Origin: Phycisphaerales bacterium
GTDB taxonomy: Bacteria; Planctomycetota; Phycisphaerae; Phycisphaerales; UBA5793
Length of the DNA stretch: 64,000 bases
NCBI GenBank assembly: GCA_043101845.1
Contig: JBICHN010000007.1
Location: forward strand, 38,224-102,223
Reading direction: 5' to 3'
How positions within the stretch are numbered: position 1 is the first letter of the stretch; each line of letters begins with the position of its first letter. Under the pieces are notes generated by a model. It saw only the letters and a list, made by a program, of their open reading frames with translations. It ran no database searches and was not told the origin of the DNA. Positions 2,722 to 59,913 of this stretch are shown here, in pieces. Both the position numbers and the translations under genes were made by a program.

Positions 2722-2788
2722 CGATCGCTCCGGGAGCGGACTGAATGAATAGACGCGCGCCGCGTCGCGTTGCGTGGCCTCGTGCGGG

Positions 2789-3583
2789 TCAGAGTGTGCC
2801 GAGTCGCCCGCCGTCCACCGGCAGGTTGATGCCGTTGATGTATCCCGCGGCCGGGGTCGCGAGGAACGCGATCGCGGCGCCGACCTCGTCCGGCCGCGCG
2901 AAGCGGCCGAGCGGCACGCTCCGCCGCATCTCCTCGGCGACCGCGTCCGGCGTCGAGTTTCCCTTGCCCGCCTTCGTTTCGATGAGGCTGCCGAGCCGCT
3001 CCGTGTCGGTGAAGCCGGGCAGCACATTGTTCACCGTGATGTGATGCGGCCCGAGTTCCTGCGAGAGCGTCTTCGCCCAGCTCGCCACGGCGCCGCGGAT
3101 CGTGTTCGACACGCCGAGCCCGGGAATCGGCTGCTTCACCGAGGTCGAGATGACATTGATGATGCGGCCGTACTGCGCCCGCTTCATCCCGGGCACGACC
3201 GCCTGCGTGATGATCTGGTTCGCGAGCAGGTGCAGGCGGAACGCCTTCGCGAAGTCTTCGGGGTCGGCGTCGATCGCCTGTCCCGCGGGCGGTCCGCCGG
3301 TGTTGTTCACGAGAATGTGGAAGGTCGCCCCGTCGTCGCCCTCGACGGCGCCGTGAATGGCGCGCTTCACCGAATCGGGATCGTGGAAGTCGGCCTGGAG
3401 CACGCCGTGCGCGCCGCCCTCGATGTCGGGAAGGTCGCCCGCGGTCGCGTCGAGCTTCTCCCGGTTCCGGGCGAAGAGGGTGAGCTGCGCGCCGAGCTTC
3501 GCGAGCTCAACCGCCGCGGCCCGGCCGATGCCCGCCGTCGACCCGCACACGAGCGCCCGCATTCCGACGAGGTTGATGTCCAT
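2789..3583 (-). CDS. SDR-family oxidoreductase
   Basis: N-terminal Rossmann motif VCGSTAGIGRAAA; SDR-like length and composition (264 aa). Confidence 0.8.
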   Translation of the reverse strand: MDINLVGMRALVCGSTAGIGRAAAVELAKLGAQLTLFARNREKLDATAGDLPDIEGGAHGVLQADFHDPDSVKRAIHGAVEGDDGATFHILVNNTGGPPAGQAIDADPEDFAKAFRLHLLANQIITQAVVPGMKRAQYGRIINVISTSVKQPIPGLGVSNTIRGAVASWAKTLSQELGPHHITVNNVLPGFTDTERLGSLIETKAGKGNSTPDAVAEEMRRSVPLGRFARPDEVGAAIAFLATPAAGYINGINLPVDGGRLGTL

Positions 3584-5323: not shown

Positions 5324-6370
5324 ATGTCTCGATCCGACGACGAACCACAGCAGGTGATGAAGGCGACGCTCGCCGAGCTCGTGCAGGGGGGCTCGCTCGA
5401 CGAGCGCCGCGCGTACGAAGTGTTCTCCATCATCATGGACGGTGGGGCGGAGGAATCGCAGATCGGCGCCCTGCTTGCGCTCATCGCCCGGCGGGGGCCG
5501 ACGGTCTCCGAACTCACCGGCGCCGCGCGCGTCATGCGCGAGCATGTCACCGGCGTGCCGACGGACGAATCGTGGCGCGACCGCGTGATCGACACCTGCG
5601 GCACGGGCGGGGCGCCGAAGACCTTCAATGTCTCGACCGCCGCGGCGCTCGTCGCCGCCGGCGCCGGCGCGAAGGTCGCGAAGCACGGCAACCGCTCGCG
5701 GAGCGGGCGCGGCTCGGCCGAGGTCCTCGAAGCGCTCGGCGTGAATGTCGCCGCGTCGCCCGAAACCCAGGGCCGCTGCCTCGACGAGGCCGGCGTCTGC
5801 TTCAGCTTCGCGATCCACCACCACCCGGCGACGCGGCATGCGACCCCGGCCCGCAAAGCGCTCGCGTTCCCGACGATCTTCAACCTCCTCGGCCCGCTCA
5901 CGAATCCCGCCGGCGCCGGGCGCCAGCTCATGGGCGTCTTCACGAAGGAGTTCGCGCGACTCAACGCGGAGACGCTCGCGACGCTCGGCTGCCGCCGCGC
6001 GTTCGTCGTGCACGGCGACGACGGGCTCGACGAAATCTCGACAACGGCGCGGACGACCGTGTTTGAAGTGCGCGACGGGCGCGTCGAAGAGTGGAGCGTC
6101 GGGCCGGAGGAACTCGGGATCGAGCGCGTCGAACTCGAAGCGCTCACGCCGACGAACGGGCTCGACGAAGCGGTCCGCTGGCTCGAGGGCGCGATCGACG
6201 GCGAGGCGGGACCGATCCGCGACATCACGCTCGTCAACGCCGCGGCCGCGATCGTCGTCGCCGGCCTCGCCGACACGCTCGACGACGGCATGGCCGCGGC
6301 GGAAAAGTCGATCGACACCGGCGCCGCCCGCGCCGCGCTCACGCAACTCGTCGAATGTTCGAATGGGTAG
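5324..6370 (+). CDS. trpD: Anthranilate phosphoribosyltransferase
   Basis: 348 aa; TrpD motifs DTCGTGG, KHGNRS and the VFTKEF…HGDDGLDEIS region. Confidence 0.85.
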   Translation: MSRSDDEPQQVMKATLAELVQGGSLDERRAYEVFSIIMDGGAEESQIGALLALIARRGPTVSELTGAARVMREHVTGVPTDESWRDRVIDTCGTGGAPKTFNVSTAAALVAAGAGAKVAKHGNRSRSGRGSAEVLEALGVNVAASPETQGRCLDEAGVCFSFAIHHHPATRHATPARKALAFPTIFNLLGPLTNPAGAGRQLMGVFTKEFARLNAETLATLGCRRAFVVHGDDGLDEISTTARTTVFEVRDGRVEEWSVGPEELGIERVELEALTPTNGLDEAVRWLEGAIDGEAGPIRDITLVNAAAAIVVAGLADTLDDGMAAAEKSIDTGAARAALTQLVECSNG

Positions 6371-6571
6371 GTCAGGCTCTTGCCTGACGGTTGGGCGTGC
6401 GAGGTCGTATCCGGGTTCGCTTCGTCGATTGAGCTGCGAAGATCCAACCGGTCGGCAGTAGCCGAACCTACCCCGGTCCTGTGGCTTCCCCAAACCTCAG
6501 CCACAGCCACCCCAGGCGCCCCGTGCGACATATGAGCGGGTGGCTGTGGTTGGACCGCAGGGAAACCACAG
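6367..6571. repeat. Composite structured intergenic repeat, copy 1 (arms gtaggtCAGGctcttgcc…, …ctgtggcttcccc-N-cagccacagccaccc/gggtggctgtggttgg-ccgcagggaaaccacag)
   Basis: Begins on the trpD TAG stop; long imperfect inverted repeats; homologous to copies at 36880, 37250 and 39237. Confidence 0.65.
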
Positions 6572-6824
6572 CGCCAGGAACGACGGTGATCGGGACACGC
6601 TCTCGCGATTCAGCACCGCTCGTCACTCGTAGAGCCGCGCTCTGTGAGCGGGGTCGCGGCGCAGGGGGTCAACCCCCCGGAGCCGCGAATCGTCGCGCGA
6701 CGGACGCCGAACTTCGAGGCTCCGCCCCGTTGAGGGGCTACGCCTCGACCCCGTGCACAGCACGCGGCTCTACGGGGGGACGATTCGGATGGGCTCGAGG
6801 AGTCCGGGAGATTCCGTTCCTTAG

Positions 6825-8528
<1,704 letters not shown>

Positions 8529-35080: not shown

Positions 35081-36868
35081 ATGACGACGAAGCGACTCGA
35101 TATCGAATCCGGATTCGATCAGGGCAAGCGCATCGAACTCGGCGAACAGCCCGTCACGATCGGCCGCCATCCGGACAACCTCTTTGTCATCGGCGATGAA
35201 CGCGCGAGCCGGTTCCACTGCGTCGTCGATTTCGATCGCGGCGACTATGTCCTGCGCGATCTCGACTCGAGCAACGGAACGAAGCTCAACGAGCGCGCCA
35301 TCGAATGGGCGCGCCTCCAGCCCGGCGACGCGTTCCGCATTGGCGACACGCGCTTCCGCTTCGTCGATCCCGATGCGCCGCCCGCGAAGAAATCCGCCGC
35401 CGCCGCGACGACCGCCACCGCGGCCGGAGGTGGCGGGCGCTCGTTCGATCCCGTGAAGTTCGATCAGTCTCCGCTCGAAATCGACGACATCGTCGCCGGC
35501 CGGGGGAACGCCGGCGGCGCCACGCGTTCCGCGCCGGCCGACTCGTCATCGGTCGCGGCGCCTTCGCTGGAGGAGCCGATGAACGAACTCCGCGCCATGT
35601 CCCGCGCGGCGCTCGCCGACCCCGACGCCCCGCTCGATCCCGCCGCGCTCGCGCTCCTCAACGCGAAAGGCGCGCTCACCTACGACTCCGGATCGACCCC
35701 CGCCGGAACCGCGAGCGGCGACGCGGTGCAACTGCTGCGTCTCATGCTCCTCACCGCGCTCATCACGCGCGCGACCGATCTCCACCTCGAACCGAACGGC
35801 GACCGGTACTCGGTGCGCCTGCGTGTCGACGGCGCCCTGACCGACGCCGCGTCGCTCGACGCCGCCGCGTTCGTCCGCCTCGCCGGCGTCGTGAAGGCGC
35901 TCGCGGGGCTCGAGGTCGCCTCGTCCGACCTCCTCCAGGAAGGGCACTTCTCCGCCCAGGCGCTCAACCGGCGCATCGGCTATCGCGTGAGCGTTTCGAA
36001 GTCGGGCGCCGAGCAGCGCCTCGTCATCCGCATCGCCGATTCCCACCGCGCGCCCCGAGAGCTTGATGAGCTTCGTCTCCCCGAGCCGACGCTCGAGCGG
36101 CTCCGCGCGTTCCTTCGGCGCGAGGCCGGCTTCCTGCTCGTCGCCGGGCCGGCCGGGTCCGGCAAGACGACGACCGCGTACGCGGCGATGCGCGAAGTCG
36201 ATCACCGGCGTCGGCGCGTCGTCACGATCGAGGAAACCATCGAGTACCCGCTCGAAGGCGCCGCGCAGCTCGCGGTGAACGGCTTCAAGGGTGAGTCCGC
36301 CCAGGCGATTCTGCGCACGGTCCTGCGTCAGGACGCCGATGTCATCTTCCTCGGCGAAGCGAACGACCGCGACACCGTCGCCGACGCGTTCGACGCGTCG
36401 ACGAGCGGCCGCCTCGTCCTCTCGACGATCGAAGCGATGGACGCAGTGAGCGCCGCGTTCCGAGTGCTCGACCTCGGGCTCGAGCCGTACCGCGTCGCGT
36501 CGTCGCTCAGCATGATCCTCGCCCAACGACTCATCCGCGTCCTCTGCCCGAGTTGCAAAGAGGAAGGGAAGCCGACGGAGGAGCAGCTCGAATCGCTCCG
36601 CGCCGTCGTCGAGTTCGAGCCCGCGGTCTACCGACCGGGCGGATGTCCGCGCTGTCTCGACACGGGATACCGCGGCCGCCGCGCGATCGTCGAATTGCTC
36701 GTCGTGACCGACGCGCTGCGCGATGAGATCCTCGAGTCGCCGACGATCCAGGGCGTCCGCGCCGCCGCGAACCTCGACCCGCGCGACACACTCCGCGGCC
36801 AGGGCTTCACCCTCGTCGCCCGCGGCCTCACTACCTTCGGCGAAGTGAACCGCGTCGCCGGGGCGTGA
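35081..36868 (+). CDS. FHA-domain-containing GspE/PilB-family secretion ATPase
   Basis: N-terminal FHA (…VTIGRHPDNLFVIGDERASRFHC…); C-terminal Walker A AGPAGSGKTTT, a GspE-type core and a CxxC…CxxC zinc motif (CPSC…CPRC). Confidence 0.8.
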   Translation: MTTKRLDIESGFDQGKRIELGEQPVTIGRHPDNLFVIGDERASRFHCVVDFDRGDYVLRDLDSSNGTKLNERAIEWARLQPGDAFRIGDTRFRFVDPDAPPAKKSAAAATTATAAGGGGRSFDPVKFDQSPLEIDDIVAGRGNAGGATRSAPADSSSVAAPSLEEPMNELRAMSRAALADPDAPLDPAALALLNAKGALTYDSGSTPAGTASGDAVQLLRLMLLTALITRATDLHLEPNGDRYSVRLRVDGALTDAASLDAAAFVRLAGVVKALAGLEVASSDLLQEGHFSAQALNRRIGYRVSVSKSGAEQRLVIRIADSHRAPRELDELRLPEPTLERLRAFLRREAGFLLVAGPAGSGKTTTAYAAMREVDHRRRRVVTIEETIEYPLEGAAQLAVNGFKGESAQAILRTVLRQDADVIFLGEANDRDTVADAFDASTSGRLVLSTIEAMDAVSAAFRVLDLGLEPYRVASSLSMILAQRLIRVLCPSCKEEGKPTEEQLESLRAVVEFEPAVYRPGGCPRCLDTGYRGRRAIVELLVVTDALRDEILESPTIQGVRAAANLDPRDTLRGQGFTLVARGLTTFGEVNRVAGA

Positions 36869-36879
36869 TCGCACGCCTC

Positions 36880-37202
36880 GTAAGCCCGGCTCTTGCCGAA
36901 CGGTCGCGCCGTAGGTTCGGCTCTTGCCGAACGGTTGTGCGTTCGTGGTTCAAGAGGGATTCGTGTAGTACGGAACGCGTGCGGCAGTTCGCCCGCCCAA
37001 CCGTCAGGCAACAGCCTGACCTACCGGGACGATCTCAATTCTCAAGTCTCAAATCTCCGATTTCAGATCTCAGATTTCAGATTTCAGATCTTCCGTCTCG
37101 AGCGCTGTCCCACCTGTGGCTTCCCGGAACCTCAGCCACAGCCACCCGATGGACAACGAAGTACCAATGGGTGGCTGTGGTTGGTCCGCAGGGAAACCAC
37201 AG
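36880..37202. repeat. Composite structured intergenic repeat, copy 2
   Basis: Starts 12 bp after the GspE stop; contains the gtaggttcggctcttgccgaacggt arm, the cgcccaaccgtcaggcaacagcctgacctacc arm, a tctcaaatc-type minisatellite, and the gccacagccaccc/gggtggctgtgg hairpin. Confidence 0.7.
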
Positions 37203-37249
37203 CGAATGAAACGACGGCGCCGGGTCCAGTGAAGGCGCACGATCGCCCT

Positions 37250-37662
37250 GTAGGTTCGGCTCTTGCCGAACGGTCGGTCGTTCGTAGTTCGAGCGGCGTT
37301 CGCGTTGAACGCGAGGCCTGCGCGAGATCGCACGCCCAACCGGCAGGCAATAGCCTGACCTACCGAATCGCCAACCCGCGCGTGTGCCACGGCCTTCCAG
37401 GCCGTGCGAATGGAACGAGGGCGTGGGTGACGAGGTCGGCCGGGGATGACTCGCGCGCCGTCCGCCGCCCACGCACGGCCGACACGGCCGTGGCACACGA
37501 GTTGATACGCTCGCCTCAAATCTCAAATCTCAAATCTCAAATTCCAGATCTTCCGCTCCGAGCGCCGTCCTCCCTGTGGCTTCCCCGAGCCTCAGCCACA
37601 GCCACCCAGCGCAAACGGGACAACGAAGGGGTGGCTGTGGTTGGGCCGCAGGGAAACCACAG
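37250..37662. repeat. Composite structured intergenic repeat, copy 3 (with a ~140-bp internal insertion)
   Basis: Same arm order as copy 2, in tandem with it. Confidence 0.7.
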
Positions 37663-37833
37663 GGCATGGAACGACTGTGTCCGTGACGAAGATCGCGCTT
37701 CAGCGTCTCCCCGATCCGATTCTGAGAAACGAATTGACGAATTCCGCGACAGTTCCCATCCTGGGGGTGGGGGCCGCTTGCATCTGCTTGGCGCCGATCG
37801 ATGTCCGGGCGACCCCGGATCGTGCGGCTGTAA

Positions 37834-39240
37834 TTGAGAGGGATCGAGATGTCGAGGAGAATATTCTGCATCGTGTCCGGTCTACTGCTATTGACCGGAG
37901 TCGGCGTCTCGTCCGGCGCCGCGGGTCCGCATCCCGTCGCGATCATCGACCTCGGCACGCTGGGGGGTGTCGGATCCACCGCACGAGGGATGAATGAAGT
38001 GGGTCAGGTGACCGGTGCAGCGCGCTCAGGATTCTCGACATTCAATCCCTATGTGTGGGAGCAAGGGGTAATGGCGCCGCTTTCAGGCGTCGGTATGTGC
38101 TGTGAAGGCGAGGGCTGGGAAATCGCCGAGACGGGGCATGCTGCGGGCGCAAGTGTAAGTGCAGACCAGCCTGCGTTATGGCGTGACGGTGTGGAGACCC
38201 CCCTTGGCACACTCGGGGGAGACAGCGGGCGAGCGCGGGCGCTCAACGACCTCGATCAGGTTGTCGGTGAATCTGAATTCGAGCCCGGCTCATTGCTGAT
38301 TCACGCCTTCTTCTGGGAAGACGGCGTGATGATCGATCTTCACCCGCCGTTCAGCGATGACCAGAGTGTCGCCTACGACATCAATAATAACTCGCAGATC
38401 GTGGGTCTCGCGTCGAATCCGAGCGGGGGAACACTGGCGGTTCTATGGGAAGAACTCGTCGCGACTGACTTGGGCTCACTCGGCGGATCGGTGAGTGTAG
38501 CCTACGGAATAAACGAACTGCATCAGATCGTCGGCTATTCACATGAGCCGTCCGGGTTCGGTCAACTCTTCTTTCGACGGGCCTACCTGTGGGAAAACGG
38601 CGAAATGCGATCGATTCACTTCGATTCATACTTCGACAGCAGCCGTGCGATTGACATCAACAACCTCGGCATGATCATCGGTGAGTACGACAATGGCGAC
38701 TTGGACGAGCGATCGCCGGCCGTCTGGTTGAGCCCTGATGGGCCGAGTCTGCATGTGGCGCGGATGCTTCCGCCGAACAGCCGGTGGGCGCCGCAGTGGA
38801 TGTTCCTCGAGGATCTCAACGACTCGGGGCAGATCGTCGGACTCGGCTGGCACTTTCAACCGGAGCGCGGCGCTTTCGAGGACCGCGGCTTCCTCATCAC
38901 GCCGGTCGAGCACGAGTTCGCGCTTTCCGATGTCGCGCCCGGGATCGCCGGGCAGGTGAACGGGATCAGGGCGAGCGGACTCGAGCCGGGCGAGCGCGTG
39001 TACTTCCTCTACTCGCAGCGTGGCGGCGGAACCGTCCTGCCCATGTGCGAGATCCTCGACGCGACGCTCCAACTCGACTACCCGTCGGTCATCACGAGTG
39101 TCCGGGCCGACGCAAACGGCGAGGCGCTCCTCCTCGTCGAGGTCCCCGCCGCGGCCCGCGCGCGAGGCGACATCCTCATCCAGGCCGTGGTCCCCTCGTC
39201 GTGCAAGCTGAGCGAGTTGCGCGTGGTGCGGTTCGAGTAG
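37834..39240 (+). CDS. Secreted HAF-family extracellular repeat protein
   Basis: Signal peptide; repeated …LGTLGG…A…IN…GQVVG…HAFLW units. Confidence 0.75.
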   Translation: MRGIEMSRRIFCIVSGLLLLTGVGVSSGAAGPHPVAIIDLGTLGGVGSTARGMNEVGQVTGAARSGFSTFNPYVWEQGVMAPLSGVGMCCEGEGWEIAETGHAAGASVSADQPALWRDGVETPLGTLGGDSGRARALNDLDQVVGESEFEPGSLLIHAFFWEDGVMIDLHPPFSDDQSVAYDINNNSQIVGLASNPSGGTLAVLWEELVATDLGSLGGSVSVAYGINELHQIVGYSHEPSGFGQLFFRRAYLWENGEMRSIHFDSYFDSSRAIDINNLGMIIGEYDNGDLDERSPAVWLSPDGPSLHVARMLPPNSRWAPQWMFLEDLNDSGQIVGLGWHFQPERGAFEDRGFLITPVEHEFALSDVAPGIAGQVNGIRASGLEPGERVYFLYSQRGGGTVLPMCEILDATLQLDYPSVITSVRADANGEALLLVEVPAAARARGDILIQAVVPSSCKLSELRVVRFE

Positions 39241-39446
39241 GTTCGGCTATTGCCGAACAGTTGGGCGCGCGTGGTCGAGCGGGATTCGAGCCGAACGAAC
39301 GACCTGCAAGAGATCGGCCGCCCAACCGGCAGGCAATAGCCTGACCTACCGGGACGATTTCAAATCTCAAATCTCAGATCTCAGATCTTCCGCTTGGAGC
39401 GCTGTCCTCCCTGTGGCTTCCCCAAACCTCAGCCACAGCCACCCCG
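39237..39446. repeat. Composite structured intergenic repeat, copy 4 (truncated; lacks the distal hairpin half)
   Basis: Begins on the TAG stop of the HAF gene. Confidence 0.65.
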
Positions 39447-39477
39447 CGCCGAGCCTGAACGAATACCCTCTCCGTCT

Positions 39478-39531
39478 CTTCGTCTCTCCGTCTCTCCGTC
39501 TCTCCGTCTCTCCGTCTCTCCGTCTCTTCCG
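39478..39531. repeat. Tandem 8-mer minisatellite (ctctccgt)x~7
   Basis: Directly visible tandem repeat. Confidence 0.8.
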
Positions 39532-39600
39532 AAAAAAACGAAGAGCCGGACTCGCGCCCGACTCTCCGTAACCCGCAATTGAAATCTCAGTTTCCGTTCG

Positions 39601-40641
39601 TCAGTTCTTCTCGCGCTCGTACTGCTCGAGCACTTCCTTGAGCTGCGTGCGCATCGGCCCTTCGTTCTCCGACTCCACCGCCTTACGCTGCCACTTGATC
39701 GCGGCGTCGAGGTCGCCCTTCTCGTAGTAGACCCGCGCGAGCGTGTCGAGAATGGCGCCGTTCTTATGGTCCGACAGCTCCGCGGCCCGCTGCGCCACCT
39801 TCATCGCGAAGTCGAGGTTCCGCTCCTGCACCTTCGGATTGTCCACGACGAACCACGCGATGGAATTGAGCGCGTTCGCGTTGTCCCAGCTCCGCTCGAC
39901 TGCCTGCTCGCCGATCTTGTATGCCTTCGCCGGCTCGTTCATGTCGCCGAGCATGACCTGGAACTTCGTCGAGAGGAGGTAGCCGTAGCGCTCTTCGTCG
40001 ACCTTCATGAGTTCGTCGATGTAGCCGAGCGCTTCCTGGTAGTTCCCGCTCTTCATCGCCTCGTTGAGTTTCCGCTGCGCTTCGAACTCGCGGCGGAACT
40101 CGTCGCGGTTCCACTCGTCGCGCACGACCTTCGCGAGCGGATCGTCGATGCGCACTGGATGGCCGATCCATTCGACCTCGCCCGTCTTGCCGACGATGAA
40201 CGCCGTCGGAATGCCGTTCTGGCCAGCGGCCTTCATGTACGAGTCGAAGACCGAGCGATCCGGATCGGTCGCGAGCGTGTAGTCGATCTTGTCGTACCAG
40301 AGGACATTCTCATCGTCCTTCTGCGCGAGGAAGTCGACGACGGTCGCAAGCTTCTCATCGCTCACGCCGATGAAGGTCACGCCGTAGTCGCGGAACTCGG
40401 TCTGCAACTCCGAGATGTGCGGCATGCTCGCGCGGCACGGGCCGCACCAGGTCGCCCAGAACTCGACGACATAGACCTTGCCGTTTTCGAACGACTTGAC
40501 CTCTTCGCCCTTCACCCAGTGTGAGATCTCGATCGCCGGCGCGGCGTCACCGACCGAGAGATCGCCCTCGGCGAACGCGACGCCGCCGGTGACGAGTCCC
40601 ATCGCCGCGGCGCTTCCGATCCACTGCATTCCTCGACGCAT
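39601..40641 (-). CDS. Secreted TlpA/redoxin-like thioredoxin fused to a C-terminal TPR/helical domain
   Basis: Signal peptide; WATWCGPC active site; a helical repeat tail. Confidence 0.75.
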   Translation of the reverse strand: MRRGMQWIGSAAAMGLVTGGVAFAEGDLSVGDAAPAIEISHWVKGEEVKSFENGKVYVVEFWATWCGPCRASMPHISELQTEFRDYGVTFIGVSDEKLATVVDFLAQKDDENVLWYDKIDYTLATDPDRSVFDSYMKAAGQNGIPTAFIVGKTGEVEWIGHPVRIDDPLAKVVRDEWNRDEFRREFEAQRKLNEAMKSGNYQEALGYIDELMKVDEERYGYLLSTKFQVMLGDMNEPAKAYKIGEQAVERSWDNANALNSIAWFVVDNPKVQERNLDFAMKVAQRAAELSDHKNGAILDTLARVYYEKGDLDAAIKWQRKAVESENEGPMRTQLKEVLEQYEREKN

Positions 40642-44067: not shown

Positions 44068-44300
44068 CCACCCAAAAAGAAAGAGAGGCGCGCCCACCGA
44101 CGCGCCTCCCCGAAATCTCAAATCTCAAATCTCAAATCTCAAATTTCAGATCTCAATTCTCCGACCTCCGACCTCAGATCTCAAATCAAACCCTCGGGTG
44201 GCACAGGCCTCCGCGCCTGTGCGAAGCTCGAGCTTCCTCATCCAAAAGGAAAGAGAGGCGCGCCAACCGACGCGCCTCCCTGAAACCTCAAATCTCAAAT
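44068..44300. repeat. Duplicated hairpin (gaggcgcgcc-caccg-acgcgcctc) plus tctcaaatc minisatellites
   Basis: Two near-identical ~60-bp units at 44068-44125 and 44245-44300. Confidence 0.6.
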
Positions 44301-44358
44301 CAACTCAATCCGCCCGCGCCTCCACCCCTCCGTGCCTCCGCGCCTCCGTGCCTCCCCG

Positions 44359-45732: not shown

Positions 45733-46223
45733 AGATCCTTCGGCGAGAGTTCATAACGCGTCGTCGTCTGAGGAGGCAGAGCGACAAAGACCCATCCGTC
45801 CGACCGGCGCCCGCTTGAAACGAGGCGTCGGCGTGACTTGAACGGCTGATCTGGTTGTGCGCGAGAGTGATCTTCCTCCCCGCGCGCAAAGACCGCGGCC
45901 CCACGCGGTCATGCCACCAACCTCCACCTCCGACGAACTATTGCACACTTCCCCACAACAACGAGTCTGACCATCCATACTAGGGATTCGAACCGACGAG
46001 ACGACCACCACGGAAATCCCCGGCGCGAACGAACCCCAACCATCCCATGAACCCCTCGCCCGCCCGCCGAGATGCGGCTCGCGCGCGAAATGTGCCATGC
46101 GAGAGACGCATGAGCGATCGACCCGATCGCGATCCCGATTGAGCCGAACCCGCCACACGCCGCCCATCCGCCCGATAGCCCGCCCCCCAGCCCGAACCCC
46201 TCCACACGCCGGAAATCACGCCG

Positions 46224-46470
46224 GAGATGGTAAAAGCTCGGCGTTCTCCGGATTCGACGCTCGAATCACACCGTCGCGTCCATACTCGCACCCATCGATC
46301 GAACGATCGCGCCCCTCCTCCACGCCGGAGATAAGCCCGGCGTTCTCCGGATTCGACGCTCGAATCACACCGTCGCGTCCACACTCGCACCCATCGATCG
46401 AACGATCGCGCCCCTCCTCCACACCGGAGAGAGTAAAAGCTCGGCGTTCTCCGGATTCGACCCTCCGAGC
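46224..46470. repeat. Tandem ~110-bp repeat (2.4 copies), each unit containing the ccggaga-N-ttctccggattcgacgc hairpin
   Basis: Direct sequence comparison of 46224-46333, 46334-46423 and the partial unit 46424-46470. Confidence 0.75.
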
Positions 46471-54480: not shown

Positions 54481-54828
54481 CCGGGGGAGGATGGCTCGTT
54501 CAGTATCAAAACCAAACCCCGCCCGCCTCGCCTGGCGGCGCCCCTCGGCCCAACGGTGGCACAGGCCTCTGAGCCTGTACGAACCGCCGCAAGATCCGCG
54601 CTCTCCGTATCTCTCTTCGTCGCCCCGGCGCACTCCGTCTCTTCACTCCGGACCTCCGCCCCTCCGTGCCCCCGTGCCTTCGTGCCTCCGTGCCTTCTCT
54701 CCCCACTCACACTCCCCACCCCACAAGCGCCTCTCTTGTATGGATGGATGGAGGAATGCCTCTTCCGTTCGTTTGTTCGTTCGAACGACCCACCATCCAC
54801 ACAACCCACGGGTAGGAGAGGAGAACCC

Positions 54829-55745: not shown

Positions 55746-55789
55746 GATCGACGAACGAACCCCGCGAGACTGGCCCCCACCAACCGACC

Positions 55790-55845
55790 CTCCACGCCGG
55801 AGATAAGGCCCGGCGTTCTCCGGATTCGACGCCCGACCCACCCGA
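55790..55845. repeat. Hairpin repeat-family unit (ccggagataaggcccggcgttctccggattcgacgcccga)
   Basis: Matches units at 606-660 and inside the 46224-46470 tandem array. Confidence 0.6.
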
Positions 55846-56133: not shown

Positions 56134-56572
56134 CCTCACGCTCGCCGCGGGGCACGACGCTTTGCGGCGACGGGTATCTTGTCGCCTGTGAGAGGCGATG
56201 GGATCTGCTCTTTGAAAAGTGAACAGTTGGGAATACGACGCCGCGAGGATGTGCCGTAACTCCGAGTCTTTCACAAGGTTCGGCGGTTGCGGGATCCCAT
56301 GGCGCGAGAATCACAGCTCGCGTCGGGAAGCATCCTTGTGACGCCCCAATTCTTTGAATGAGGAATTGTGAGGTGACGGATGATTCCGGAACTGTCCCGT
56401 CGATCTTAGCCGACGACGGGGCCCGGTGGCGCCTGCGGACATGTGTGCGTGCATACATGGGAGTGGGTGTCACGGGAAGACCGGCCCGATCGGACTAAGC
56501 CCCGGTCGGGTGACCAGGTCGACCTTCATCTGACGCATTCCGGCTTCTTCGGAAGTCGGAGCGATGATAATC

Positions 56573-58091
<1,519 letters not shown>

Positions 58092-58830
58092 GATACCTTA
58101 GACGCGGTCCGAGAGCGATCTCAACCGCGATACAAGTCAACGCAGCCTCGTCCGCTAAGACCCTCACCGGTCCGGCGGAAACGCACGCGGCGACGCGTGC
58201 GGATGGCGCCGAATTCCCCAACTGTTCGCAATATAACCAGCAACCCCGGCTGACTTAGCTCAGTCGGGGTTGTTGTGTTTAAGGCGGAAGGCACGGGGGC
58301 ACGGGGGCACGGAGGCACGGAGGGAAGAGACGGAGAGACGGGGAGGCGGAGAGACGAAGTGTGCGGGAGGGACGGAGGCACGAAGGCACGGGGGCACGAC
58401 GGGAAGAGACGGGGAGACGAAGAGACGGGGGCGCGGGGAGGGGCAGAGGAATATCTCAGATCTGAGATTTGAGATCTGAGATTCTTATGCGGCCGAGTCA
58501 GGGGCATCGACACTGTGCGGCTTTGAGAACTCGCCGCGCAAAGACACGCCTGAGCTCCGACAAATCTCAAGGGATACCGCGTGATTTCGAGTCGCATCAA
58601 ATACATACCAGCAGACCTTCGCTCGCCGGCGCCAGCGCCCGACATGACAAACGAGGCCCCCGCGTGATTCCGCTATGACTTTCTGGTAAGGTGTGCCGCG
58701 TGGGCGCATGGCGATCGTCGCCGCGCGAAACGAGAAGCACGGCGGCGTCGCGCCTTCGGTCCGTCACATTCAACCGTTCCATCCGGTCACACTTCGGCGC
58801 CTCGTTCCGGCGCCGCGCGGAGACTGCTCC

Positions 58831-59913
58831 ATGTTCGAAGATCGCGAAACGCTCTGGGTCGTTCATATCGGAAGGCAGGACGGCCTGCCGACGCGGGCCC
58901 GCGACGAAGGCTTCGTCGCCATCGGATGGCCGCGGCTTGGCGATCTTCGTCAATACAAGACGCGCGACGCCATGCGCGAGGCGATGAAGCGGGCATGGCC
59001 GAACTGGTCCGAGCATCGGGTCCGCGCCTGCTACGGCCAGGTCTTTCGCTTCGCGCACAAGATGCAGGTTGGCGACCCCGTCGTGTTTCCCATCAAGGCG
59101 ACCCGTGAGATCGCGATCGGGCGAATCTCGAGCGACTACCGGTACCACCCCAACTACCACGAGACCGACGGCGAAGACTATCCGAACTTCCGCGATGTCG
59201 AATGGCTCAAGATCGTGCCGCGCACCGCGTTTTCGAAGTCCGCGCTGCACAGCTTCGGCGCCTTCCTCTCCGTGAGCACTTCCGACGATCATCTCGAAGA
59301 GGTCATCGCCGTGCTGAACGGCCAGGACTCCTCCTCTCCTGCCGATCGCACGCCCACGATCGGGGGCGGAGTCGTCAAACGGACGCCATCCGTCTTGCCC
59401 CGGGACGACGATGAGGACGCCGACGATCCCACCGACCCCGGCATGAGCCTGCTCGAATCAGCGCAACAGGAAACTGAAGATTACCTGCTCAAGCGATGGT
59501 CGCGCACCGGCGCCGAGTTCGAGCATGTCGTCGCCGCGGTGCTCGAGGCGATCGGATACACCGCGACCGTGACGAGCGCGAGCGGCGATCACGGCGTCGA
59601 TGTCATCGCCCATCCCGACCCGCTCGGCCTCGAGCCGCCCTTCGTGAAGGTCCAGGTCAAGAGCGGGACCGGCTCGGTCGGCGAGCCGGCGGTGAGCCAG
59701 CTCCTCGGATCGCTGTCGGAGGGGGAGAAGGGGATCTGCGTCGCGCTCGGCGGCTTCACGACGCACGCGCTCTCGAAGGCCCGGAACTCATCGCGTGTGA
59801 GCCTCATCGACGCGAAACAGTTCGTCGCGCTCTTCCTCGAACACTACGAACAGATGAACCCGCTCTGGCGGGCGCGGTTCCCACTCAGCCGCGTGTATGT
59901 GCCGAGCGCGTGA
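58831..59913 (+). CDS. Mrr-family type IV restriction endonuclease (Mrr_N winged helix + Mrr_cat)
   Basis: C-terminal PD-(D/E)xK Mrr_cat (…FEHVVAAVLEAIGY…GDHGVDVIA…VQVKSG…); the start could be further upstream (58693). Confidence 0.65.
   Translation: MFEDRETLWVVHIGRQDGLPTRARDEGFVAIGWPRLGDLRQYKTRDAMREAMKRAWPNWSEHRVRACYGQVFRFAHKMQVGDPVVFPIKATREIAIGRISSDYRYHPNYHETDGEDYPNFRDVEWLKIVPRTAFSKSALHSFGAFLSVSTSDDHLEEVIAVLNGQDSSSPADRTPTIGGGVVKRTPSVLPRDDDEDADDPTDPGMSLLESAQQETEDYLLKRWSRTGAEFEHVVAAVLEAIGYTATVTSASGDHGVDVIAHPDPLGLEPPFVKVQVKSGTGSVGEPAVSQLLGSLSEGEKGICVALGGFTTHALSKARNSSRVSLIDAKQFVALFLEHYEQMNPLWRARFPLSRVYVPSA

Follow-up and report, generated by a model that had tools for sequence, protein, structure and literature searches.

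Tagged hairpin repeats behind genes of a Phycisphaerales bacterium: probable BIME-like mosaics of REP-type families

What are the four repeat clusters that stand directly 3′ of plus-strand genes, all in one common orientation, within 64,000 nt of a Phycisphaerales genome (GenBank assembly GCA_043101845.1, contig JBICHN010000007.1, positions 38,224 to 102,223; hereafter the window)? A sequence-only reading had taken them for four copies of one composite structured element, and had offered as identities a miniature transposable element with inverted repeats (MITE), a family resembling repetitive extragenic palindromic (REP) sequences and bacterial interspersed mosaic elements (BIMEs), or a conserved structured RNA or terminator at gene 3′ ends. 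We find that the clusters are probably BIME-like mosaics, in which at least two REP-type families and short tandem repeats have accumulated after genes. One of their parts, module A, is a GTAG-tagged REP in tag-outward inverted pairs, resembling the REP doublets that form hairpins (REPINs).

Sequence reading and pattern searches across the window recover all four clusters where the sequence-only reading had placed them, and alignment of the copies confirms that the order of modules is common to them. The module A motif, GTAGGTYMGGCTNTTGCCKRAC, has nine matches, and the module C pattern finds four left arms and three right arms, in both cases against 0.00 expected from dinucleotide-preserving shuffles. 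Tandem Repeats Finder returns the period-7 arrays of module B at 37032-37091, 37515-37551 and 39356-39388. Perfect hairpins carrying a GT[AG]G tag number 15 in the window versus 3.25 ± 1.5 in shuffles, and 13 of the 15 lie within the clusters, whose parts are the following.

6367-6471, plus strand: module A pair 1, with a unit of the GTCAGGC/GCCTGAC stem type at 6367-6388 (+) and one of the GTTCGGC type at 6450-6471 (-)
6478-6571, plus strand: module C pair 1; left unit 6478-6512 with its GTGG tag on the minus strand and stem CTGTGGCT/AGCCACAG, right unit 6538-6571 with stem CTGTGGTT/AACCACAG, tags inward, spacer 25 nt
36880-36901, plus strand: solitary, degenerate unit of module A, GTAAGCCCGGCTCTTGCCGAAC, which precedes copy 2 and stands head-to-tail with the unit that follows
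36911-37024, plus strand: module A pair 2, GTTCGGC-type left and GTCAGGC-type right, spacer 70 nt
37032-37091, plus strand: heptamer array of the ATCTCAA type, 8.6 copies
37113-37202, plus strand: module C pair 2
37250-37363, plus strand: module A pair 3, spacer 70 nt
37364-37513: insertion found in copy 3 only, with 13-bp inverted ends, GTGTGCCACGGCC, at 37382-37394 and 37486-37498
37515-37551, plus strand: heptamer array, then a conserved linker of ~21 nt (37552-37572) ahead of module C
37573-37662, plus strand: module C pair 3
39237-39349, plus strand: module A pair 4, spacer 69 nt
39356-39388, plus strand: heptamer array
39410-39444, plus strand: single left unit of module C, right partner absent
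39468-39527, plus strand: octamer array, CTCTCCGT, 7.5 copies

The order of modules is shared, as had been claimed, but the set is not uniform. Copies 2, 3 and 4 have in common, at ~79-89% identity, module A, a heptamer array, the conserved linker and module C, with an extra ~150 nt in copy 3 (a second copy of this insertion was looked for in the window and not found) and only the left half of module C in copy 4. In copy 1 the heptamer array is absent and module A is joined straight to module C; here module A is inverted relative to copies 2-4, with the GTCAGGC-type unit on the left, the GTTCGGC-type unit on the right, tags outward and a 61-nt spacer, while the orientation of module C is unchanged. 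Because orientation, presence and taxonomic range vary separately, modules A, B and C are independent pieces and the clusters are mosaics, which replaces the single conserved composite element of the earlier proposal. The heptamer array, linker and module C that copies 2-4 share at this level of identity suggest that the A+B+C block was later copied whole, and only secondarily, by duplication or recombination. Heptamer arrays also occur with neither A nor C beside them, at 679-729, 44113-44187 and 58453-58482.

Each module A unit is a GTAG tag abutting a perfect 7-bp stem closed by a 4-nt loop. Two types exist, GTAG-GTTCGGC-TCTT-GCCGAAC and GTAG-GTCAGGC-TATT-GCCTGAC, with two compensatory base pairs distinguishing them, and both are present in every pair of the window. 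The module as a whole is an inverted pair of 22-31-nt units with a pair length of ~105-115 bp; the spacers of the window pairs are 61-81% alike. A single unit of module A folds as single-stranded DNA (ssDNA) into tag plus hairpin at about -8 kcal/mol, and single units generally reach about -8 to -9. Module A conforms to the rule that PMC6006769 applies to short hairpins (a fully paired stem of 7 bp or more, loop of 2-5 nt); its stems start GTCA or GTTC and so have two G/C among their first four bases, below the at least three of four for which that source filters, a filter that is a heuristic for searches and does not define the repeats biologically.

The same hairpin recurs in other genomes as what we call family A. 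A scan with one genome per species gave at least 109 matching stretches, and about 120 loci were fetched. In a set of 53 different variants, 93.8% of cells in the 7-bp stem are paired, both sides change at four of the seven pairs (16 cells; 0 of 500 shuffles reach as high), and complementarity at the two free stem positions is retained in 141 of 148 exact matches. The sequence-only reading had proposed covariation across copies as a check, and compensatory stem changes are what this comparison finds. Among neighbouring family A units, 54 of 75 pairs have their tags outward, mostly 44-70 nt apart, and single units are common. GTAG palindromes in inverted pairs, present in many Planctomycetota genomes and varying by compensatory changes with no target-site duplication, bear out the REP-BIME-like family among the identities first suggested.

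Two of the four clusters supply the stop codon of the gene before them, as had been noticed from the sequence. The trpD frame (5324-6370) stops at the TAG 6368-6370, inside the GTAG of the unit starting at 6367, and the frame of the HAF/DUF3466 gene, which ends at 39240, stops at the TAG 39238-39240, inside the GTAG of the unit starting at 39237. A third cluster was said to begin just past the stop of the GspE-like gene, and it does so: the stop is 36866-36868, and the degenerate lone unit starts 11 nt beyond, at 36880. Over all loci, 50 of 209 family A units have a tag whose TAG ends an open frame 100 codons or longer, compared with 9.7% of all TAG triplets; where the nearest upstream frame (at least 120 codons) ends within 400 nt of a unit, it ends exactly on the tag for 41 of 160 units. 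Use of the tag's TAG as a stop codon is a published trait of GTAG REPs, described by Di Nocera et al. (2013; PMC3733652).

Module C is built on the same plan with a different tag. Its units, read tag first, are GGGTGG-CTGTGGCT-(12 nt)-AGCCACAG and GGGTGG-CTGTGGTT-(12 nt)-AACCACAG, in which GTGG, an accepted variant of the REP tag, abuts a perfect 8-bp stem. Stem position 7 is C-G in all left units and T-A in all right units, and the basal stem, CTGT, has two of four G/C, likewise below the search filter. The window pairs have their tags inward around a spacer of 21-25 nt of variable sequence, whereas the one genuine module C contig found in a scan of JGI metagenomes carries two units whose tags point outward, immediately behind a stop codon (a second match was rejected as a low-complexity false hit). 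The small hairpins are perfect, whereas the long hairpin between the arms contains a C-A mismatch and a G-U pair. Inward pairs here, an outward pair there and perfect small hairpins point to the single unit, rather than the long hairpin, as what looks like the building block of module C. In A and C alike, the partners within a pair are different subtypes that differ by compensatory stem changes, and selection therefore acts on the small hairpins one by one, the long hairpin between the arms not being its target. None of the 109 Planctomycetota loci, nor ~75 kb from the closest relatives available, contains module C or the heptamer and octamer arrays; short-read contigs from the same strain terminate within module C and within the octamer array, which suggests that these repeats are multi-copy in that genome.

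Family A is spread far more widely. Among the matches listed (at least 109), nearly all stretches are from Planctomycetota, and an identical 22-mer, GTAGGTCAGGCTATTGCCTGAC, is present in at least 20 assemblies of that phylum, from both classes. This commonest form occurs in assemblies of 50-65% GC, from Kolteria novifilia (Kolteriales), Planctomycetaceae, Pirellulaceae, Gemmataceae, Phycisphaerae and Tepidisphaeraceae, with variants of one or two bases in Isosphaeraceae and in one metagenome-assembled genome (MAG) of Pirellulales. Matches outside the phylum are isolated and mostly non-palindromic and look like chance; one true pair was found in a Campylobacterales MAG. In motif-selected loci, one MAG has 84 units over 308 kb and Kolteria 37 over 120 kb; the window has nine in 64 kb. 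A full-text literature search for the family A sequence returned only unrelated primer sequences.

Individual copies also persist. In three homologous locus pairs from genomes 81-89% identical, a family A unit occupies the same site, differing by one base in two of the pairs and identical over 22 nt in the third, and the DNA adjoining the unit has acquired indels and substitutions in the two orthologous pairs that were aligned. One pair shows a full doublet in one genome where the other has a single unit and an 82-nt deletion; in one pair the unit lies 5′ of a gene start. Having been selected by motif, these loci document long-lived copies and give no rate. Only two aspects exceed what textbooks say of REP biology: the unit is identical across the phylum, and it is retained at orthologous sites. 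They raise the doubtful possibility that the family A hairpin is an element kept near letter-perfect across the phylum and held at orthologous sites as the DNA around it drifts, with no transposase adjacent, beyond an ordinary species-level REP; if true, this would point to a very ancient, vertically inherited partnership between REP and REP-associated tyrosine transposase (RAYT), or to a host-domesticated signal such as a protein-binding or 3′-end processing site.

RAYTs themselves were sought among all open reading frames (ORFs) of the window and the loci, by tblastn and with a hidden Markov model (HMM) derived from 120 RAYTs of Planctomycetes. One fetched locus, L059, encodes a RAYT at 2786-3394 (-), which scores 85.4 bits against NCBIfam REP_Tyr_transpos (cutoff 80), matches Pfam Y1_Tnp and has 570 homologues, many labelled RayT by their sources. 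This gene and three homologues in other genomes (loci L113-L115) are flanked by GTAG REP families other than A, with 8-bp stems and a TGCCG-type loop (TGCCG or TGCCGG), and RAYT-REP units therefore exist in Planctomycetota. One of the flanking REPs reads GTAG-GTCCAGCC-TGCCG-GGCTGGAC, and in L115 (3871-4822) up to eight GTAG REP units surround one RAYT gene in a clear REPtron-like layout.

How do the window clusters compare with known systems? BIMEs of Escherichia coli are mosaics of Y and Z REPs and linker motifs. The window clusters are similarly composed of two REP subtypes in alternating orientation together with other short motifs, the partners of a pair being of different subtype, and copies 2 and 3 recall the tandem reiteration of BIMEs. 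The sequences are unrelated, however, and the window clusters combine GTAG and GTGG families with a heptamer microsatellite.

The likeness to GTAG REPs is closer in detail. As described by Di Nocera et al. (2013; PMC3733652) and Nunvar et al. (2010; PMC2817692), they share with family A a tag directly 5′ of a short GC-rich hairpin, subfamilies with compensatory stem changes, mostly tag-outward pairs 20-100 nt apart and often of different subtypes, and a location mostly after genes. Among Planctomycetes, PMC3733652 reports GTAG REPs from Rhodopirellula baltica, where tyrosine transposases are also numerous, and from two Planctomyces genomes. Family A differs in having only two G/C in the first four bases of its stem, and its outward pairs have variable spacers where conserved spacers are given as a rule of thumb for GTAG REPs in that text. 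Compared with the families of PMC3733652 by text description, family A is another example of this known repeat class. REPINs mobilised by RAYTs (Bertels and Rainey 2011; PMC3116915) are likewise inverted REP doublets with predicted hairpins, the doublet being the commonest arrangement, and their singles arise by doublet decay, of which family A provides one case in the deletion above; Planctomycetota RAYTs are, as in those systems, flanked by REPs of their own. In contrast to REPINs, no cognate RAYT was found for family A or module C in the window or fetched loci, family A spacers are not conserved among copies in most genomes, and its near-identity throughout a phylum is wider than that of the species-level families described.

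By analogy with E. coli and Pseudomonas (PMC3479197, PMC3116915), the GT[AG]G tag would most likely allow the units to be recognised as ssDNA hairpins by a RAYT/TnpA-REP protein, an HUH Y1 transposase, encoded elsewhere in the genome, and this enzyme, acting in trans, would spread or maintain them with no target-site duplication. Insertions would survive where they are harmless, at the 3′ ends of genes, where the TAG of the tag, or a TGA 18 nt further on, could replace the stop codon, and the transcribed hairpins may shield the upstream mRNA 3′ ends.

Several results weigh against this account of REP-type families. No RAYT adjoins family A or C in the window or in the ~120 fetched loci by HMM, regular expressions or Pfam on flanked ORFs, nor was a cognate for family A found by tblastn, by Pfam on unit-bracketed ORFs, in the contexts of four RAYT homologues or in scans of plasmid and viral contigs. 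Spacers within family A pairs from other genomes are mostly unrelated in sequence and length, so the whole pair fits poorly as the copied unit. All modules are absent from three related Phycisphaerales loci (~75 kb). Module C is known only from seven units and one outside locus, and its REP membership is less secure than that of module A because its 12-nt loop falls outside the usual short-REP rule of 2-5 nt (PMC6006769); published GTAG-15 repeats have loops of 9-15 nt.

Do other explanations do better? It is unlikely, in our judgement, that the clusters are functional RNA structures of 3′ untranslated regions (terminators, attenuators or 3′ exonuclease barriers) under transcript selection, with their repetition secondary, even though all four directly follow plus-strand genes in the same orientation and fold strongly (z-scores -3.9 to -6.5), and some units persist at orthologous sites in genomes 81-88% identical. 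No T-run follows module A or C, while canonical hairpin-plus-T-run sites exist elsewhere in the window; an intrinsic terminator scan of 36500-40000 placed no site at A or C, its sole terminator-like match being 39569-39538 (-). Rfam recognises only the 16S rRNA at gathering score in the window, and a permissive scan adds only sub-threshold matches to miRNA hairpins, so that the terminator or conserved structured RNA offered by the sequence-only reading finds no backing. Module A is found both ways round with respect to the gene (copy 1 versus copies 2-4), one orthologous unit lies 5′ of a gene start, and small hairpins preserved beside a mismatched long stem are what hairpin recognition predicts, with no RNA required. 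Roles in RNA would, moreover, be compatible with a REP origin.

Another reading makes family A units sites where a conserved protein of the host (nucleoid, gyrase or IHF-like) binds, or some other host signal, now immobile and under purifying selection at each site. Against it, their distribution is patchy (abundant here, absent from ~75 kb of loci of related Phycisphaerales), deletion reduces pairs to single units, and subtypes differing by compensatory changes coexist. An identical 22-mer across two classes and 50-65% GC would suit such a signal, as would units that stay nearly identical at orthologous sites beside spacers with indels and substitutions, spacers unrelated between copies, and the want of an adjacent RAYT in the window and fetched loci. 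We regard a host signal as quite unlikely to be the explanation, and it is not exclusive of the REP reading, as E. coli REPs are RAYT substrates that also bind proteins of the host. If the pairs were classical MITEs, bounded by terminal inverted repeats and mobilised by a DDE transposase, this would account for inverted ends of 22-31 nt, a length of ~105-115 bp and intergenic placement. Yet 35 of 49 family A pairs show no target-site duplication, as in the permuted control, every arm is a GTAG-tagged palindrome in its own right, single units are common and no related insertion sequence was found in the fetched loci, and the MITE, also among the early suggestions, is highly improbable. Integron attC sites (RYYYAAC/GTTRRRY cores) were considered and rejected on reading the sequence, the ends being GTAGGTC/GACCTAC and the neighbours housekeeping genes; no integrase search was run.

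The REP-type mosaics lie among further repeats of the window, which include the following.

6629-6773: a further GTAG-ended inverted pair of 145 nt in the trpD-atpD spacer, arms 6629-6656 (+) and 6746-6773 (-)
679-729, 39468-39527, 44113-44187, 44283-44355, 54640-54705 and 58289-58482: pyrimidine-rich arrays

The pair at 6629-6773 is unique in the window, and its long hairpin folds with z = -6.7. A third tagged palindrome family, GGTGG-CACAGGC-N6-GCCTGTG, has two copies, at 44197-44220 and 54555-54578, each beside pyrimidine-rich arrays; tagged palindromes of several families are thus present in the genome, which parallels what has been reported for R. baltica. The pyrimidine-rich arrays, 30-190 nt long and made of heptamers (ATCTCAA) and octamers (CTCTCCGT, CCTCCGTG), occur in many intergenic spaces. 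A role for these C/T-rich arrays as Rho-loading sites was dropped, their orientation relative to the flanking genes not being uniform. Terminator-like hairpins with a T-run stand on the minus strand at 39569-39538, 44111-44082 and 44281-44252, the last two near-identical, ~170 nt apart and downstream of an FAD/halogenase-like gene. At 46217-46465 lies a 99-nt tandem repeat (2.4 copies, 88% matches) with a CCGGAGA...TCTCCGG hairpin and no GTAG tag, with single relatives in intergenic DNA at 608-653 and 55789-55834. Outside the window, locus L069 (~2395-2500) carries another GTAG hairpin family, GTAG-CTGAAGTC-GTAA-GACTTCAG, as a tag-outward pair whose left unit is followed by a T6 run; at the orthologous site of locus L048 only the right unit is present.

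The neighbours of the clusters are housekeeping genes (trpD, atpD, GspE). Proteins from Phycisphaerales MAGs match the atpD product at 91% identity; the real start of atpD is near 7088, so that the trpD-atpD spacer measures ~720 nt. The nearest relatives are 84-85% identical at atpD, and synteny with them breaks at this spacer: compared with related Phycisphaerales genomes (loci L118-L121), gene order matches downstream of atpD, while upstream, across 6371-7087, trpD stands here and an OEP-family gene there. The break thus coincides with the repeat-filled spacer. The HAF/DUF3466 gene (37849-39240) is bracketed by copies 3 and 4, as had been pointed out; the bracketing is real, but it reflects neighbouring clusters, with no mobile unit demonstrated. 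Mostly 58-62% GC with positive GC skew, next to ~70% in the upstream GspE-like gene, it may be a later arrival; a look-up of its protein found no record. Farther along, a complete 16S rRNA gene (56572-58085) is followed by an Mrr-type restriction endonuclease gene (58693-59913), with no 23S rRNA in the next 6 kb, and the rRNA genes appear unlinked.

Work on REPs and REPINs has so far been almost entirely in Proteobacteria, and the window provides a clear, well-delimited case from Phycisphaerales, with two tagged families and a heterodimer design, by which the BIME-style mosaic reaches Planctomycetota. At a practical level, these repeats supply annotated genes with stop codons and fragment assemblies made from short reads. 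That a 22-nt REP is nearly identical throughout a phylum and stays at orthologous sites is relevant to the question of whether REPs live on as long-lasting symbionts or are signals selected by the host.

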